This document shows, piece by piece, positions 3,341 to 7,994 of a stretch of 24,000 nt of DNA. The position numbers and the translations under genes are program-made. This stretch comes from Thermococcus kodakarensis KOD1. Its GTDB lineage: Archaea > Methanobacteriota_B > Thermococci > Thermococcales > Thermococcaceae. The stretch's first letter is position 1; each line of letters starts with the position of its first letter. The stretch lies in contig NC_006624.1 of NCBI RefSeq assembly GCF_000009965.1, positions 1,933,989 to 1,957,988 on the forward strand, written 5' to 3'. Under the pieces are notes generated by a model. That model saw only the letters and a list, made by a program, of their open reading frames with translations, ran no database searches and was not told the DNA's origin.

Positions 3341-4603
3341 TCAGAGGTACCATTCGGAAAAGCTTCCAAGTCCGAGCCTTTCAAGGGTCTTCATGACACC
3401 GAGGGCTATACCCTCGACCTCTATCCCGCCGGGTAGCTTGTAGGCATCGCCGACGATGTAGATATCCTGAATCGGGAAGTCCTCAACGGCCTGCCCGCTG
3501 GCGACCCTGTTGACAGGATTTCCGTCGAGGTAGGTCTGGATGAGCAGGATCTCGCCCTCTTCATCGAGGTTAGGGAAGATTCTGTAAATGTCGTCTATGC
3601 CCTTCTTCTGCTCCTCCTTAACGTTCCTGCTCTGAAGGGCATGGTGGAGCATTATGAGGGTGTATCCCTCTGGAGCGAGCTCCGGGCTTAGAGCTGTTGG
3701 CTCATTATAGCCGTTTATTCTCTCAGTATCGAGAGTGAAAACGACGGTGTTCCCGATCCTTGATTCTCCTTTCAGGGCGACGTTGTACTTTATCCCCTCG
3801 CTCGGCTTCAGAGACTCAACGTGCCTGAGGTATTCCCTATCGAAATTCTCCCTTCCGAGGAGCTCAACGGTCTCCTTGATGCCGATGTTCGAGATAAGGA
3901 CATCGTAAGGAAACTCCTCGTTGTCGGCCGTCACCACCTTCTTTGCCTCGGCATCGACTTCAACGGCCTTCTTCCCCGTCAATATTTTTCCGCCGTTTTC
4001 CACCACAATTCTCGCAAGCTCGTCGGTTAAGGCCTTACAGCCGCCTCTGACGAGTCCAGGGCCGCCCCACTTTAGGGCCGCTTTAATCTCCCTGGCCAGC
4101 TCTCCAGCAGGTACATCCAGCACGCTGTCGGCCCAGCCGAGGAAGCTCTTGATGAAGAGGTCGGTGAACTCGTTGTCGCCTATCTTTTCCTTAATCCACC
4201 CGCGCCCGCTCATCTCGGCCTCTTCTCCGGTCGGGAGCTTGTTTCTCTTTATGTCCGCCATCAGTTTCATCGCCCTGGCTTTCTCCTTCCAGCCGAGGTA
4301 CTTCCAGCCCTCGCGGTAGTGGAAGGTCTTGCCCTCGTAGAAGATCATGCCCTTTGGGTTGGAGTTCACTATGGTGACGTTCGCACCGAGGAGTTTTAGG
4401 AGGTGTGCCAGTGGGCCGTCTTCGCCGTGAGGGAGCATGTGAAAGGCTCCCGTTGAGAGGCCGAAGCCCTTGTAATTCAGATTTGTGAAGCGGCCGCCGA
4501 TATAAGGAGCTTTTTCAAGAACCGTGACATCGTAGCCTTTCCTGGCTAGAAATCCAGCTGTCAAAAGCCCGCCGATTCCAGAGCCAATAACCACTGCCCT
4601 CAT
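3341..4603 (-). CDS. FAD/NAD(P)-binding oxidoreductase, phytoene-desaturase-like (COG1233-type); substrate unknown
   Basis: The track ORF runs 3341..4681, but the likely start is the internal ATG at 4603-4601 (MRAVVIGSGIGGLLTAGFLARKGYDVTVLEK, a GxGxxG Rossmann dinucleotide-binding motif). It is preceded by a GGTGG ribosome-binding site (minus strand: caggtggtagaATG). The 26-codon extension has no ribosome-binding site. Confidence 0.75.
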   Translation of the reverse strand: MRAVVIGSGIGGLLTAGFLARKGYDVTVLEKAPYIGGRFTNLNYKGFGLSTGAFHMLPHGEDGPLAHLLKLLGANVTIVNSNPKGMIFYEGKTFHYREGWKYLGWKEKARAMKLMADIKRNKLPTGEEAEMSGRGWIKEKIGDNEFTDLFIKSFLGWADSVLDVPAGELAREIKAALKWGGPGLVRGGCKALTDELARIVVENGGKILTGKKAVEVDAEAKKVVTADNEEFPYDVLISNIGIKETVELLGRENFDREYLRHVESLKPSEGIKYNVALKGESRIGNTVVFTLDTERINGYNEPTALSPELAPEGYTLIMLHHALQSRNVKEEQKKGIDDIYRIFPNLDEEGEILLIQTYLDGNPVNRVASGQAVEDFPIQDIYIVGDAYKLPGGIEVEGIALGVMKTLERLGLGSFSEWYL

Positions 4604-4778
4604 TCTACCACCTGAAATGCCAAGGGTGAGGAAAAATATAAGGGTTTGGCCGTTGTATGGATGTACAACTCCTTTACTCATGCTTCTTTTGATCCGTTCT
4701 AAGAAGAAAACTTAAGTTTTAATAATTTTATACCTCAAAAAGAGAATAAAATATGGTTAGCAAAAACAAATAGAAAAA

Positions 4779-4788
4779 TTTATAAATA
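4779..4788 (+). promoter_or_regulatory. Candidate archaeal TATA box (TTTATAAATA) with an A-rich BRE-like flank, serving the small ORF / rSAM operon
   Basis: gaaaaaTTTATAAATAtaag lies about 45-55 nt upstream of the GTG at 4833. A start site about 25 nt downstream would give a ~20-nt leader that contains the Shine-Dalgarno site. Confidence 0.45.
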
Positions 4789-4832
4789 TAAGTTGTTCAA
4801 AATATATTGCAAAAACTTAAGGAGGTGATAAC

Positions 4833-4937
4833 GTGGAGGAATTGATTGTGCTAGAGAGGGGAGCATTCGGCTTCAACGAGCCAAACTTTTTCATCTGCGG
4901 GAGCTTCTGTAACCCTGTGAAGGATAACCCGAACTGA
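4833..4937 (+). CDS. Unlisted 34-codon ORF: candidate RiPP precursor peptide MEELIVLERGAFGFNEPNFFICGSFCNPVKDNPN (GTG start)
   Basis: GGAGGTGA (4821-4828) is a full anti-16S Shine-Dalgarno site 4 nt upstream of GTG 4833. The frame is bounded by an in-frame TAA at 4818-4820 and a TGA at 4935-4937. The ORF is about 50% G+C (hand count 52/105) inside an otherwise very AT-rich intergenic region. It lies 66 nt upstream of a radical SAM/SPASM gene and has two Cys (CGSFC) in its C-terminal half. Confidence 0.5.
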   Translation: MEELIVLERGAFGFNEPNFFICGSFCNPVKDNPN

Positions 4938-4942
4938 TGGGG

Positions 4943-4967
4943 TTTTATCTTTTTATTTTTAAATTTT
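4943..4967 (+). terminator. Oligo-T tracts (T4, T5, T5, T4): candidate archaeal termination or attenuation signal after the small ORF. May also serve as an A/T-rich promoter element for the rSAM gene
   Basis: ggTTTTatcTTTTTaTTTTTaaaTTTTg follows the TGA immediately. Archaeal RNA polymerase terminates at oligo-T runs. Confidence 0.4.
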
Positions 4968-5003
4968 GAACTACTAAACTACTGAAAATGGGGGTGGAGA
5001 AAT

Positions 5004-6335
5004 ATGAAAAATGTTAAACTCTCGAGATATACTCTCGCTGTTCCATATCAGGGACGTATAATACTATTTAATACCCTTTCACGCTCATTAGTTGCTATTT
5101 CAGAAGATGCTTGGAACAGGCTTAAAAATAGTATCAGCAATGCCAACGCTGATATTGACAATGGAACTCTTAATGATAGCCTAATTAAAGAACTAACCAC
5201 TTTGGGATTTTTGATACCTTCCCAATTAGATGAAAAGGAGCTAATGAGGACTCATGTGAATGTTCTAAAATATACTCCAACACACATGGGAATGTTTGTG
5301 AACTTAACTTCAAGATGTAATCTCTCCTGTCCTTATTGTTACCAAGACTTAAGAAAAGCTTTAGACAGTAATCAGGATTTAACAACTGATAGCTGGAATA
5401 GAATAATGAGACTAATAAACAAGAGGATAAACATTCTGAGAAATGTCAATGTTGTGTTCTTCGGAGGAGAACCAATGTTGAATTATAATACTCTAAAAGT
5501 GGCAGTAAGAGATTTAGATTCTTTAAAAGAAATCGGCATTAAAACCTCTATGTCCATAATAACTAATGGGACGTTATTTTCCAAACAAAGAGCCCAGGAG
5601 CTGGCACCCTACATTAGCTCGGTTCAAATTACTTTGGATGGAATGAAAGAGACGCATGATAAAATGAGGCCATACTCTGATGGAAGTGGAACCTTTGATA
5701 TCATTCTAAAAAATATTATCGATAATATTGACCAATATCGGAAAAGAATTATATTAAGATCAAATATAAATGATGATAATATCGCCAGTGTCAAGTCCTT
5801 ATTACACTATTTGAAAGAAGAATACGGGCTTCACAAGTTACTAAAAGGAGTTGGTTTTGAATACATATTCCCAACTCAAACGTCGATACATGTAGGTGAG
5901 AGCTATAAATTAACCCAACATATTTCAAAACTACTAATTGAGATTTATTCCTACGCTGTGGATTTGGGGTATTCCATAGGAAACCCCCTAATACTTGGCC
6001 CATGTATGGCAAACCATGCCTTTAGTTTTGCAGTGGATGAACAACTAAATGTTTATAAATGCCCAGGCTTTCTATATTCAAATCCGGATGGATACATTGA
6101 CGAAGAAGGCAATCTTGTCATCACAAGTTCTAGATGGTATTCTTTAATAAACTTCGAGCCACCATGTGCTCTCAATTGTAAATTTGGCCCAGTATGCTAC
6201 GGAGGATGCAGATGGATGGCCAGTTCATCAAAGTCCAAAATTTCCTGTAATATAGAGCACCTACAGAATTACAGCGAATTTTTAGCACTTTATGTTAAGT
6301 CAAGATATAAAAAACTTCTGGAGGGCGAAGGATGA
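5004..6335 (+). CDS. Radical SAM enzyme with a C-terminal SPASM-type auxiliary Fe-S domain and an N-terminal extension of ~95 aa (candidate peptide-recognition element); putative peptide maturase
   Basis: 443 aa. The CNLSCPYC motif (C105/C109/C112, nt 5316-5339) is CX3CX2C, and FFGGEPML is the SAM-binding glycine motif. The C-terminal seven Cys are C334, C353, C388-X3-C392-X5-C398-X3-C402 and C415 (nt 6003-6248), which is SPASM-like. A GGTGGAG ribosome-binding site sits 4 nt upstream of the ATG. G+C is much lower than in the neighbouring genes. Confidence 0.85.
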   Translation: MKNVKLSRYTLAVPYQGRIILFNTLSRSLVAISEDAWNRLKNSISNANADIDNGTLNDSLIKELTTLGFLIPSQLDEKELMRTHVNVLKYTPTHMGMFVNLTSRCNLSCPYCYQDLRKALDSNQDLTTDSWNRIMRLINKRINILRNVNVVFFGGEPMLNYNTLKVAVRDLDSLKEIGIKTSMSIITNGTLFSKQRAQELAPYISSVQITLDGMKETHDKMRPYSDGSGTFDIILKNIIDNIDQYRKRIILRSNINDDNIASVKSLLHYLKEEYGLHKLLKGVGFEYIFPTQTSIHVGESYKLTQHISKLLIEIYSYAVDLGYSIGNPLILGPCMANHAFSFAVDEQLNVYKCPGFLYSNPDGYIDEEGNLVITSSRWYSLINFEPPCALNCKFGPVCYGGCRWMASSSKSKISCNIEHLQNYSEFLALYVKSRYKKLLEGEG

Positions 6336-7240
6336 ACGTGATAGAAATTGACAACCTCACCAAGGTGTATCCCGACGGCACAAAGGCCAACGATGGAATC
6401 TCAATCCGCGTCAGGAAGAATGAAATTGTTGGGATCATCGGTCCCAACGGTGCTGGAAAAACCACGCTCATACGACAGCTTCTGGGGCTTTTGAAGCCAA
6501 CGGAAGGCTCAATCAGGGTGATGGGAAGGGACATCGTGAATAACCCAGATATTGTAAAAAGAACCCTTGCCTACGTGCCTCAGTATCCCCTCAGCTTTCC
6601 CTCTTTGAGGGTTGAGGAGGTTCTGGAGTACGTCCTCAGGATGCGGGGCGAAAGCATTTCACCAGCCGAGATGGGGAAGAGAATATCGGGTGTTCTAGAG
6701 CTCCTCGGTCTCAGTGGGGCGGCAAAGTTCTTCGGGTATCAGCTCTCGGGGGGTATGAAAAAGTCCCTGCTGCTGGCGATGGCCATCATTCAGGAGCTTC
6801 CGGTCCTCGTGCTGGACGAGCCCACGAGCATGGTGGACATCGTTACAAAGCACCGGCTGTGGGATGTAATAAGGAATTCAAACCGGGAAGGAATTCTCCT
6901 CGCCAGCCACGACATGAACGAAGTAAAGGCGCTCTGCGACAGGGTGTACCTCCTCGTTTATGGAAAGATAGTGACCTCCGGCACTCCCGCGGACATAGTC
7001 TCGATGGTTAAGATGCCCACCGAGGTTCGTTTAATCCCCGGGAGGGAGATACCCCAGAGCATCCTCCCCAAGGAGCACAAAAAACGCGGAGACCTCTACG
7101 AGCTGGCCTTCGACACGCTTGAGGATGCATTGCGGACTGTGGATGCAATCCTCAAAAGTGCGGGGGTGTCCTACCTCGAGATTGAGTCCCCCTCATTTGA
7201 GAACCTCGTGATAAACCTCATCGGGAGGGATGGCGAATGA
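6332..7240 (+). CDS. ABC transporter ATP-binding protein (ABC-2 / DrrA-like exporter type)
   Basis: 302 aa with Walker A GPNGAGKTT (nt ~6440-6466), signature LSGGMKK, Walker B LVLDEPT and H-loop ASHD. The start overlaps the rSAM stop (ATGA at 6332-6335), indicating translational coupling. Confidence 0.9.
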   Translation: MNVIEIDNLTKVYPDGTKANDGISIRVRKNEIVGIIGPNGAGKTTLIRQLLGLLKPTEGSIRVMGRDIVNNPDIVKRTLAYVPQYPLSFPSLRVEEVLEYVLRMRGESISPAEMGKRISGVLELLGLSGAAKFFGYQLSGGMKKSLLLAMAIIQELPVLVLDEPTSMVDIVTKHRLWDVIRNSNREGILLASHDMNEVKALCDRVYLLVYGKIVTSGTPADIVSMVKMPTEVRLIPGREIPQSILPKEHKKRGDLYELAFDTLEDALRTVDAILKSAGVSYLEIESPSFENLVINLIGRDGE

Positions 7241-7884
7241 TTCGTCCTCTAATTGGGATGGAGCTTAAGGGAATGCGGCTCTACAGGACGTTCCTCTTTG
7301 TCAACCTCCTGCTCATGCCCTTCGCCTTGCTCTTTATGATGCTCATGAACTCCAGCTCGAGAACTCCGGAGGACATCTCTTACCTGGTGAGCGGCTTTAT
7401 CGTTGTTTCTCTGGTTAGTTCTTTCCTCGGAACGCTAACGAACAGGGTCAGCAATGTCTTCGAACCCAGTGTTCTTGAGCTTTACTCAACACTACCCCCA
7501 AGAATATCAGCGGTAGTCCTCGCCCAGTTCCTCACTTACTCCCTGCTGGTCCTCCCCCAGGTGCTCCTGGGTCTCGCGGTTATCGTTTACTATCAGGGAA
7601 CTAGCAGAATAAACATCCCCCTTCTGATTCTGGCACTTTCATTAACTTTCCTTGAGCTGGGGGCGCTTGCGGTTTCCATAGGTGCGAAGATTGGAAACCC
7701 CTACAAGGCGATGGCCGTCACGGGAATACTGCCCTGGCTCCTCGTGGTGTTCTCCCCTGCCTACTACCGCTCCAGCTCCCCTGTGCTCTACCTGAACCCC
7801 ATTACTTTCCTGTTATCATGTATCCGCTCGACCATTGGACTGCAGAGCGTGAGCCCTACCCCCTGCCTGTTTCGATGGCTCTAA
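7237..7884 (+). CDS. ABC-2 type transporter permease, apparently truncated or frameshifted at the C-terminus
   Basis: 215 aa with five clear hydrophobic helices and an NP-containing motif (YLNPITFLLSCIRSTIG) typical of ABC-2 permeases. ATGA overlap with the ATPase gene at 7237-7240. The expected sixth helix is encoded in a different frame (7851-7952); see findings. Confidence 0.8.
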   Translation: MIRPLIGMELKGMRLYRTFLFVNLLLMPFALLFMMLMNSSSRTPEDISYLVSGFIVVSLVSSFLGTLTNRVSNVFEPSVLELYSTLPPRISAVVLAQFLTYSLLVLPQVLLGLAVIVYYQGTSRINIPLLILALSLTFLELGALAVSIGAKIGNPYKAMAVTGILPWLLVVFSPAYYRSSSPVLYLNPITFLLSCIRSTIGLQSVSPTPCLFRWL

Positions 7885-7994
7885 CAGGAGTTTTCCTGCT
7901 CTTTGCACTCAGAAGTCTGCGTTCCGGCTATATGCTTGAGAAACCATTTTAATTTCTCTTTTCATTAATGGGGAGAAAGGAAATAAAACGGCGG

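Follow-up and report, generated by a model that had tools for sequence, protein, structure and literature searches.

A conserved precursor peptide, radical SAM enzyme and ABC transporter cassette as a candidate locus for a modified ribosomal peptide in Thermococcus kodakarensis KOD1

Does Thermococcus kodakarensis, the standard genetic model among the hyperthermophiles, carry genes for a peptide that is made on ribosomes and then modified after translation (RiPP)? The question is raised by a four-gene locus of strain KOD1, situated in a stretch of 24,000 nucleotides (NC_006624.1, positions 1,933,989 to 1,957,988; hereafter the window, from whose first letter coordinates are counted), where a 34-codon open reading frame (ORF) precedes genes for a radical S-adenosylmethionine (rSAM) protein, an ATP-binding cassette (ABC) ATPase and an ABC-2 type permease. 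An earlier note, made from the letters of the window, had proposed that the rSAM protein crosslinks the small peptide through Cys thioethers and that the pump exports the product or confers immunity. Herein we find that the four genes recur together, in the same order, in archaea and bacteria, and that the enzyme has the domain make-up and the homology of a peptide maturase. A self-contained four-gene RiPP cassette is, with good confidence, the best explanation of the locus. The comparison of sequences strongly suggests that the 34-residue peptide is the substrate of the enzyme, and we hold with moderate confidence that the pump exports the product or confers immunity; that the modification is a thioether formed from the conserved Cys is favoured by a small margin over its not being one.

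A peptide family that stays joined to an enzyme and a pump

The cassette, in the order peptide, rSAM enzyme, ABC ATPase and ABC-2 permease, was found by synteny comparison in at least ten distinct loci (counting the window, L001-L005, L007, L087-L089 and L093-L095, whose rSAM homologues are 34-91% identical), with members in Thermococcus, on a crenarchaeal-looking contig, in Thermotogae and in other bacteria. Further source labels within the cassettes and the peptide family were Lachnospiraceae, Bacteroidales, Marinitoga, Clostridium cuniculi and Hungatella hathewayi. Gene order was unchanged in every locus with enough sequence, the ATPase gene lay 3' of the rSAM gene in every cassette, and the large genes abut or overlap, as they do in the window through the ATGA start/stop overlaps that the earlier note had placed at 6332-6335 and 7237-7240. 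The identities of the three large genes to those of KOD1 fall together, from 79/85/86% (rSAM/ATPase/permease) in Thermococcus henrietii through 60/67/69% in the metagenomic locus L004 and 54/56/50% in L006 to about 40/45/39% in L007 and 34/41/31% in L095, which argues that the pump is a co-inherited member of the unit and not a chance neighbour. A conserved fifth gene, for instance a leader peptidase, was also considered and dropped, because the genes 3' of the permease in L088, L090, L094 and L095 are mutually unrelated and the neighbours in the window are housekeeping genes.

The small ORF of the window starts with GTG and encodes (M)EELIVLERGAFGFNEPNFFICGSFCNPVKDNPN. Peptides of the same family occupy the equivalent position in T. 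henrietii (MEELIVLERGSASFDEPNFCGVFCNPVKGGDNPN; rSAM enzyme 76-79% identical), on a metagenomic contig (MEEVKEIVVLERGSSGFDEPNFCVFCNPVKN; 58-60%) and in a metagenome-assembled genome (MAG) of the Thermotogae (MVRVSKRVQVLEKGSAGVEEPNFCGYFCNPVKISDG; 38%), and a motif scan in six frames, covering every locus retrieved, revealed more members upstream of enzymes that are 33-39% identical. Such a peptide was present upstream of every homologous rSAM gene with upstream sequence at hand. The synteny check that the earlier note had suggested thus came out in its favour, with a small Cys-containing ORF of one family on the upstream side of the rSAM homologues and the ATPase and permease genes on the other. 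The family is marked by the signature (V/I)LExG-x5-EPNF, after which comes a core of 9-27 residues that varies and holds two to four Cys. All 38 collected peptides carry LExG and, without exception, the E, N and F of E-(P/R)-N-F; the two blocks are separated by exactly five residues in 34 peptides and by seven in the other four. The part after EPNF varies freely except for a recurrent C-x(1-3)-F-C-(N/S)-P-(V/I), in which the Phe next to Cys and the N/S-P-V/I after the last Cys are kept, and the first core Cys is invariant in a 25-sequence alignment. RiPP precursors are typically built in just this way, with a leader that is conserved and a core that varies and is rich in Cys. The two Cys that had been proposed as crosslink donors are indeed present in the KOD1 peptide, although, counting the initiator, they are Cys22 and Cys26 rather than residues 21 and 25.

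A word-indexed profile search returned 33 family peptides, while HMMER, run exhaustively against 1.84 billion protein representatives, gave 48 matches at E<=1e-3, all but one of which (47) are peptides of 29-90 residues bearing the family signature. None of the NCBIfam models matched any family peptide even at E<=10, and the protein collection held no named protein that matches the peptide exactly. The strings EPNFC, FCNPVK and CNPVK had no occurrence in the literature searched, where 'EPNF', among the occurrences listed, carries unrelated senses, and literature searches on Thermococcus rSAM enzymes and RiPPs and on Hungatella rSAM enzymes brought up no account of the peptide family. It is a family without an entry in NCBIfam or Pfam and without a name in the sources checked.

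Selection on the ORF and its control elements point the same way. Among the 32 aligned codons of KOD1 and T. henrietii, 16 differ synonymously, nine non-synonymously and seven are identical; the proportion of non-synonymous differences (pN) is 0.11 with silent sites saturated, comparable to the flanking genes, and this codon comparison shows purifying selection on the peptide gene. The TATA element (4779-4788), the ORF with its Shine-Dalgarno site and the oligo-T tract lie where the earlier note had read them (Table 1), and an A-rich agaaaaa (4772-4778) stands directly 5' of the TATA box. In the alignment of KOD1, T. henrietii and L004 the TATA core AAATTTATAAA is invariant and equally distant from the start codon in all three, and an TGCAAAAAA element is kept alongside the TATA box and the Shine-Dalgarno site, the latter being complementary to the 3' end of 16S ribosomal RNA. 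Because the family recurs upstream of rSAM homologues, is under purifying selection and has a conserved promoter and Shine-Dalgarno site, we take the small ORF to be real.

The same evidence bears on a very different account, in which the small ORF would be a regulatory upstream ORF (uORF), an attenuator or a chance ORF, and the rSAM enzyme would mature some other protein, such as a neighbouring oxidoreductase, sulfatase or quinoprotein. Archaeal RNA polymerase terminates at oligo-T tracts. By that analogy the tract after the ORF can be regarded as a candidate terminator or attenuator, and it could serve attenuation; T. henrietii and L004 have T-rich counterparts at the matching position. The enzyme also has distant matches to anSME and QhpD, and in the window the cassette is flanked by a tungsten-type aldehyde:ferredoxin oxidoreductase and an FAD oxidoreductase. 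The flanking genes, however, vary from lineage to lineage and differ in every non-Thermococcus locus, while the peptide, rSAM and ABC genes stay linked; the leader keeps its amino acids in different domains of life although silent sites are saturated; the enzyme retains an N-terminal domain of the peptide-recognition type; and the matches to anSME (69 bits, cut-off 349) and QhpD (90 bits, cut-off 453) stay below threshold. A sulfatase or quinoprotein gene, which the earlier note had named as the neighbour that would speak against its reading, adjoins the rSAM homologue in none of the loci examined, and the same is true of a gene for quinohemoprotein amine dehydrogenase. We therefore consider the uORF account highly improbable. 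A known RNA element in this region was likewise rejected, since Rfam gave no match in window 4600-5100 and the fold of the post-ORF region is not significant (z -0.34).

Table 1 Features of the cassette in the window, with residue ranges for the domains of the rSAM enzyme.
Feature	Coordinates	Strand	Basis or remark
Predicted archaeal promoter: A-rich stretch resembling a B recognition element (BRE), and TATA box TTTATAAATA	4772..4788	+	Read directly; predicted
Shine-Dalgarno site AGGAGGTGAT	4821..4830	+	2 nt before GTG 4833; invariant in three aligned loci
Precursor peptide gene (candidate), 34 aa; leader MEELIVLERGAFGFNEPNF, core FICGSFCNPVKDNPN	4833..4937	+	Translation and conservation upstream of rSAM homologues
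Oligo-T tract (T4, T5, T5, T4) between peptide gene and rSAM gene	4943..4967	+	Read directly
Radical SAM/SPASM peptide maturase (candidate), 443 aa, probably TK2160	5004..6335	+	Identity, NCBIfam/Pfam, AlphaFold2, Foldseek
Domains of the rSAM enzyme	residues ~1-94, RRE-like; ~95-330, rSAM barrel; ~330-443, predicted twin-cluster C-terminal domain		
ABC transporter ATPase, 302 aa, BAD86350.1, probably TK2161	6332..7240	+	Start overlaps rSAM stop (ATGA)
ABC-2 type permease, BAD86351.1, probably TK2162	7237..7952	+	Start overlaps ATPase stop (ATGA); frameshifted

The enzyme and the chemistry it may perform

The 443-residue protein is 100% identical to the KOD1 entry 'hypothetical protein, conserved, radical SAM superfamily' and matches the Pfam Radical_SAM model with 54.6 bits (cut-off 29.5). 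Its length, CX3CX2C and GGEP motifs and seven C-terminal Cys are as the earlier note described them, with C105/C109/C112 and GGEP (154-157) invariant in 26 homologues, together with the first six of the C-terminal Cys (334, 353, 388, 392, 398 and 402), and with the seventh, C415, nearly so; the description of the C-terminus as SPASM-like held less well, in that the Pfam SPASM model is unmatched and the motif reads CX3CX5CX3C here versus the canonical CX2CX5CX3C. Because there are only seven conserved C-terminal Cys for two predicted auxiliary clusters, one of these would have to have a free or non-Cys ligand position.

Profile searches placed the protein along its full length among the rSAM/SPASM peptide maturases, as had been anticipated. 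The three best NCBIfam matches were to the geopeptide maturase TIGR04280 (residues 5-415, E 4e-54, 184 bits versus a cut-off of 400), the 'Cys-every-fifth' maturase CefB NF038107 (residues 5-407, E 7e-51, 173 versus 600) and TIGR04463 (residues 16-404, E 4e-46, 158 versus 525), and the window protein is a member of none of these closest curated families. The NCBIfam alignments extend through the seven-Cys C-terminal region, the fold of the model matches SPASM enzymes, and since the best three alignments start at residues 5-16 they cover the N-terminal peptide-recognition region as well. Weaker matches were found to many further rSAM/SPASM peptide maturases, and those to the SCIFF maturase TIGR03974 (75 bits versus 425), PapB NF047865 (102 versus 340) and the sactipeptide maturases StsB (64 versus 625, E 1e-17) and RumMC (57 versus 720, E 2e-15) were well short of their cut-offs. 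To our knowledge, the chemistry of the TIGR04280, NF038107 and TIGR04463 families is uncharacterised.

The AlphaFold2 (AF2) model of the enzyme is confident, with a predicted local distance difference test score (pLDDT) of 90.1 and a predicted template modelling score (pTM) of 0.89. Ahead of the barrel, residues 10-90 (pLDDT mostly 84-93) are modelled as strands 10-15, 18-23 and 28-33 and helices 34-45, 58-66 and 77-90, a beta-beta-beta-alpha-alpha-alpha order. The winged-helix layout of the RiPP recognition element (RRE) has been described for TigE, CteB and SuiB, the crystallographic RRE of TigE being residues 3-85 (PMC10878394), and in the model the N-terminal domain of the window enzyme appears RRE-like. 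Foldseek ranked CteB, TigE, SuiB, anSME and ChlB at the top, the model being nearest to the first three. A profile of the 26 homologues matched CteB (5WGG) with E 8e-38 and TigE (8VPO) with E 8e-22, the latter alignment running from profile position 4 along TigE residues 9-427 and thus across the TigE RRE.

The best solved relative is CteB of the thermocellin (CteA) system of Clostridium thermocellum, a thioether synthase of the ranthipeptide type (PDB 5WGG, 5WHY), which is also the best fold match (Foldseek E 5e-18, TM about 0.65). Both enzymes combine an RRE or RRE-like domain, an rSAM barrel and a twin-cluster C-terminal domain (predicted for the window enzyme), both are encoded beside a small, Cys-containing precursor, and both have seven C-terminal Cys, which would leave three Cys ligands for one auxiliary cluster. 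Grove and colleagues are said to have found in 2017 that in CteB the substrate Cys binds an auxiliary cluster. The two systems differ in that the enzymes share only ~19% identity, the window precursor has an LExG...EPNF leader and a much shorter core, the cluster motif has the CX3 spacing noted above rather than CX2 in its first interval, and the window cassette has a dedicated ABC-2 pump. The second-best fold match is TigE, one of the TigE/TvgB cyclopropylglycine synthases (PDB 8VPO; TM 0.68), to which the profile aligns over almost the full length, RRE included. Missing from the window enzyme, nevertheless, is the GYW motif, of which the Tyr is a ligand to TigE's auxiliary cluster I and needed for activity (PMC10878394), and the window peptide does not have repeated TVGG/TIGSVS motifs. 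The earlier note had also drawn a parallel with the subtilosin A cluster of Bacillus subtilis (sboA-albA...albC-albD). This parallel applies to the gene order, which is again precursor, rSAM/SPASM enzyme, ABC ATPase and membrane partner, but homology is not borne out: the window peptide is unrelated to SboA, AlbE/AlbF-type proteases and a head-to-tail cyclisation signal are missing here, and none of the 25 best NCBIfam matches is to an AlbA model.

Because the closest curated families are described as acting on Cys-rich peptides and CteB, the nearest relative with a solved structure, makes thioethers, thioether formation is the slightly favoured chemistry. The same cassette could instead install a different modification, for example a Phe C-C crosslink, a cyclopropane, an epimerisation or a change to Asn or Pro, with the Cys acting as disulfide partners or metal ligands. 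The closest folds include those of TigE, which makes cyclopropyl groups, and SuiB, which forms Lys-Trp C-C crosslinks, and the Phe beside Cys and the N/S-P-V/I after the last Cys are conserved; moreover, the variable Cys spacing within the family (CVFC, CGVFC, CVFSNC) fits one fixed thioether ring poorly. This possibility is weakened by the description of all three best NCBIfam matches as Cys-rich-peptide maturases, by the rank of CteB as top solved relative, by the invariance of the first core Cys, and by the fact that neither the cyclopropyl-synthase GYW motif (PMC10878394) in the 443-residue enzyme nor the repeated TVGG/TIGSVS-type motifs in the peptide are present. We regard a non-thioether modification as possible, though clearly the less probable outcome.

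Several results weigh against reading the locus as a thioether-forming RiPP cassette. The Pfam SPASM model (PF13186) gave no match even at E<=10 when the C-terminal domain was searched alone, the Pfam PqqD model did not match the N-terminus of the enzyme, and the enzyme scores well under the NCBIfam threshold set for each named maturase family. TigE, the second-best structural relative, makes cyclopropyl groups and not thioethers. The fold itself does not fix the chemistry, C-C crosslinks or other products being compatible with it, and the Cys spacing argues for caution about any single ring. Furthermore, a leader peptidase is not encoded within the cassette, and production and modification of the peptide are predictions made by comparing sequences. 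With these points taken into account, the locus is supported as a candidate rSAM/SPASM-RRE RiPP cassette of a known kind, outside the cut-offs of every named family, with a precursor family new to NCBIfam and Pfam.

Archaeal rSAM-type RiPP clusters are known only from prediction in bulk by genome mining, and functionally characterised archaeal RiPP clusters are limited to lanthipeptides from Haloarchaea (PMC12144867). A different, subtilosin-like cluster was proposed in July 2026 for T. celer and T. nautili, with T. kodakarensis unmentioned (bioRxiv 10.64898/2026.07.27.741052), which indicates that Thermococcus does contain rSAM peptide clusters. The statement in the earlier note that no characterised rSAM-modified peptide is known from Thermococcales still holds alongside these predictions (PMC12144867; bioRxiv 10.64898/2026.07.27.741052). 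The four-gene cassette, being small and in a tractable organism, could thus serve as a test case for archaeal peptides and, if the reading is true, reveal an rSAM-crosslinked peptide at 85 C.

Integrity and expression of the T. kodakarensis copy

The ATPase matches ABC_tran (E 2e-30) and the DrrA subfamily (E 3e-54, 184 bits, below the cut-off of 312), whereas the permease has a weak match to ABC2_membrane_3 (6e-4), its orthologues matching ABC2_membrane. The pump is thus made up of an ABC ATPase and a separate multi-span ABC-2 permease without a C39 peptidase domain, an arrangement that is DrrAB-like. The locus tags given for the three large genes in Table 1 were assigned from accession order and from a neighbouring gene of the window, that for a class V fructose-1,6-bisphosphatase.

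Two more points against the cassette reading concern the integrity of the genes. The earlier note, whose locus runs to 7952, needs correcting on the permease: the frame opened at 7237 stops at 7884 (215 aa), and the orthologous C-terminus up to 7952 lies in another frame. A base is missing at about 7869/7870 (a one-nucleotide gap when aligned to T. henrietii), beside a C/G difference at 7866, so that the window reads TGCCTG-TTTCG versus the TGGCTGGTTTCG inferred from the intact protein (7860-7884). The orthologues in other cassettes are 236-246 aa long, and an intact 238-aa permease (P0161), otherwise identical to that of KOD1, occurs in 88 independent read-based assemblies as compared to three NCBI records with the 215-aa form. 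The frameshift is either an error of the reference or a minority allele, and the GC-rich run in which it lies looks prone to sequencing error. A second, different frameshift variant, also 215 aa, was seen in four assemblies.

The other point comes from three Thermococcus-like contigs of three public sequencing runs (L090, at 5171-5827, and also L091 and L092), in which the rSAM gene has an in-frame internal deletion of ~227 aa with the junction ...EIGIKAS/KSKISCNIEHL... The peptide gene is kept and the pump is intact in these contigs, where an additional gene, of 460 aa and with no Pfam match, separates the permease gene from that for the aldehyde:ferredoxin oxidoreductase. Given the frameshifted permease of the window and the deleted rSAM genes of these contigs, the cassette appears to be dispensable and sometimes to decay.

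Could the T. kodakarensis cassette then be a decaying remnant that worked in the past and is now silent or broken, so that the strain yields no mature peptide? Both lesions would fit, as would the strongly atypical codon usage of the rSAM gene, whose GC content at third codon positions (GC3) is 0.32 versus 0.66-0.78 for its neighbours. The 88 assemblies with an intact permease argue otherwise, as they make an artefact or a rare allele a plausible source of the frameshift, and the rSAM gene is itself intact with a ratio of non-synonymous to synonymous substitution rates (dN/dS) of 0.14 versus T. henrietii, which implies purifying selection on the enzyme. The promoter, Shine-Dalgarno site and ORF are likewise conserved, and TK2161-2162 have been reported as inducible (PMC12827226). 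A remnant is accordingly unlikely in our estimation, and a functional cassette is the reading that we retain.

Base composition was uneven across the cassette (window 4833-7884; L001 4822-7947). The KOD1 peptide gene has a GC3 of 0.69, the rSAM gene 0.32, the ABC genes 0.68 and 0.66 and the flanking genes 0.67-0.78; the corresponding values in T. henrietii are 0.29 for the peptide gene, 0.31 for the rSAM gene and 0.58 and 0.59 for the ABC genes. Recent horizontal transfer was rejected as the simple cause of the low-GC rSAM gene, as the synonymous divergence (dS) between KOD1 and T. henrietii is ~1.0-1.45 for cassette genes and flanks alike, and the rSAM gene has been AT-rich in both lineages despite near-saturated silent change.

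With respect to expression, RNA-seq after 72 h of iron exposure found TK2161-2162 among the ABC transporters induced, with a log2 fold change of 4-7 (PMC12827226). This induction, together with the overlapping genes, suggests that the operon is transcribed in vivo. A T/A-rich tract (TTTTTATTTTTAAATTTT, 4950-4967) after the peptide gene precedes the rSAM start codon by ~40 nt and, to judge by its letters, could double as a putative TATA-like element for an independent rSAM-ABC transcript.

Proposed pathway and wider family

In the pathway that we propose, the promoter at ~4772-4788 would drive a short, strongly translated precursor gene, most transcripts probably ending at the oligo-T tract while a fraction reads on into the three overlapping genes. 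The RRE-like domain would then bind the conserved leader, probably through its beta-prone (V/I)LExG segment, with the invariant EPNF as the presumed junction of leader and core. Cleavage of S-adenosylmethionine at the CX3CX2C cluster would give a 5'-deoxyadenosyl radical that abstracts hydrogen from the core, after which one or more intramolecular crosslinks would close and the two auxiliary Fe-S clusters would accept the electron. The likeliest product would be a thioether that joins Cys22 and/or Cys26 to a carbon of a nearby residue within FC(N/S)P(V/I)K, and the auxiliary cluster with three Cys ligands could hold the substrate thiolate, as in CteB. Finally, the DrrAB-like ABC-2 pump would export the product or protect the producer, and an unlinked protease encoded elsewhere would trim the leader near EPNF.

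A bolder version, which we think rather doubtful as a whole, would see the EPNF-leader peptides as an unrecognised RiPP class common to hyperthermophilic archaea and anaerobic bacteria. It would carry a chemically new crosslink (e.g. a thioether or C-C bond onto Asn-Pro-Val/Ile-Lys) and act either as a heat-stable effector secreted at ~85 C (an archaeocin or inter-domain weapon) or as a thiol- or metal-linked factor of the iron-sulfide stress response that induces TK2161-2162. The signature (V/I)LExG-x5-EPNF with its Cys core now makes it possible to search for such peptides and to type them, and the precursor family links the archaeal copies to bacterial ones, including those of the gut Clostridium Hungatella hathewayi. 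Two 29-aa members from H. hathewayi (P0151 and P0154; MKFTVLEKGMLSFTEPNFCVFSNCNTKIW) are annotated 'Uncharacterised protein', P0154 occurring on 145 contigs.

Among the more distant loci, L095 (5001-8103) holds a four-gene cassette beside genes for PaREP1, deoxyhypusine synthase and PF0610-like zinc-ribbon proteins, which suggests that its contig belongs to a crenarchaeon and hence to a second archaeal lineage with the EPNF peptide family. A scan of a genome collection with the rSAM alignment gave matches that, among those listed, were mostly 25-30% identical maturases of other families, with L007 and L016 being useful. One candidate, L008, from a MAG labelled Thermococci, was rejected as a cassette member because it is a separate cluster with two rSAM genes in which the EPNF-type peptide is missing; its adjoining rSAM/SPASM-like genes (3947-6557) encode proteins of 442 and 438 aa, ~27% identical to the window enzyme, and it is itself a separate candidate peptide-maturase cluster. 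Within the peptide family, two longer predicted proteins, P0169 (89 aa) and P0181 (68 aa), hold the leader/core unit, P0169 with a second, degenerate VMEKGCITF repeat further along, and both may be tandem precursor genes fused by gene calling.

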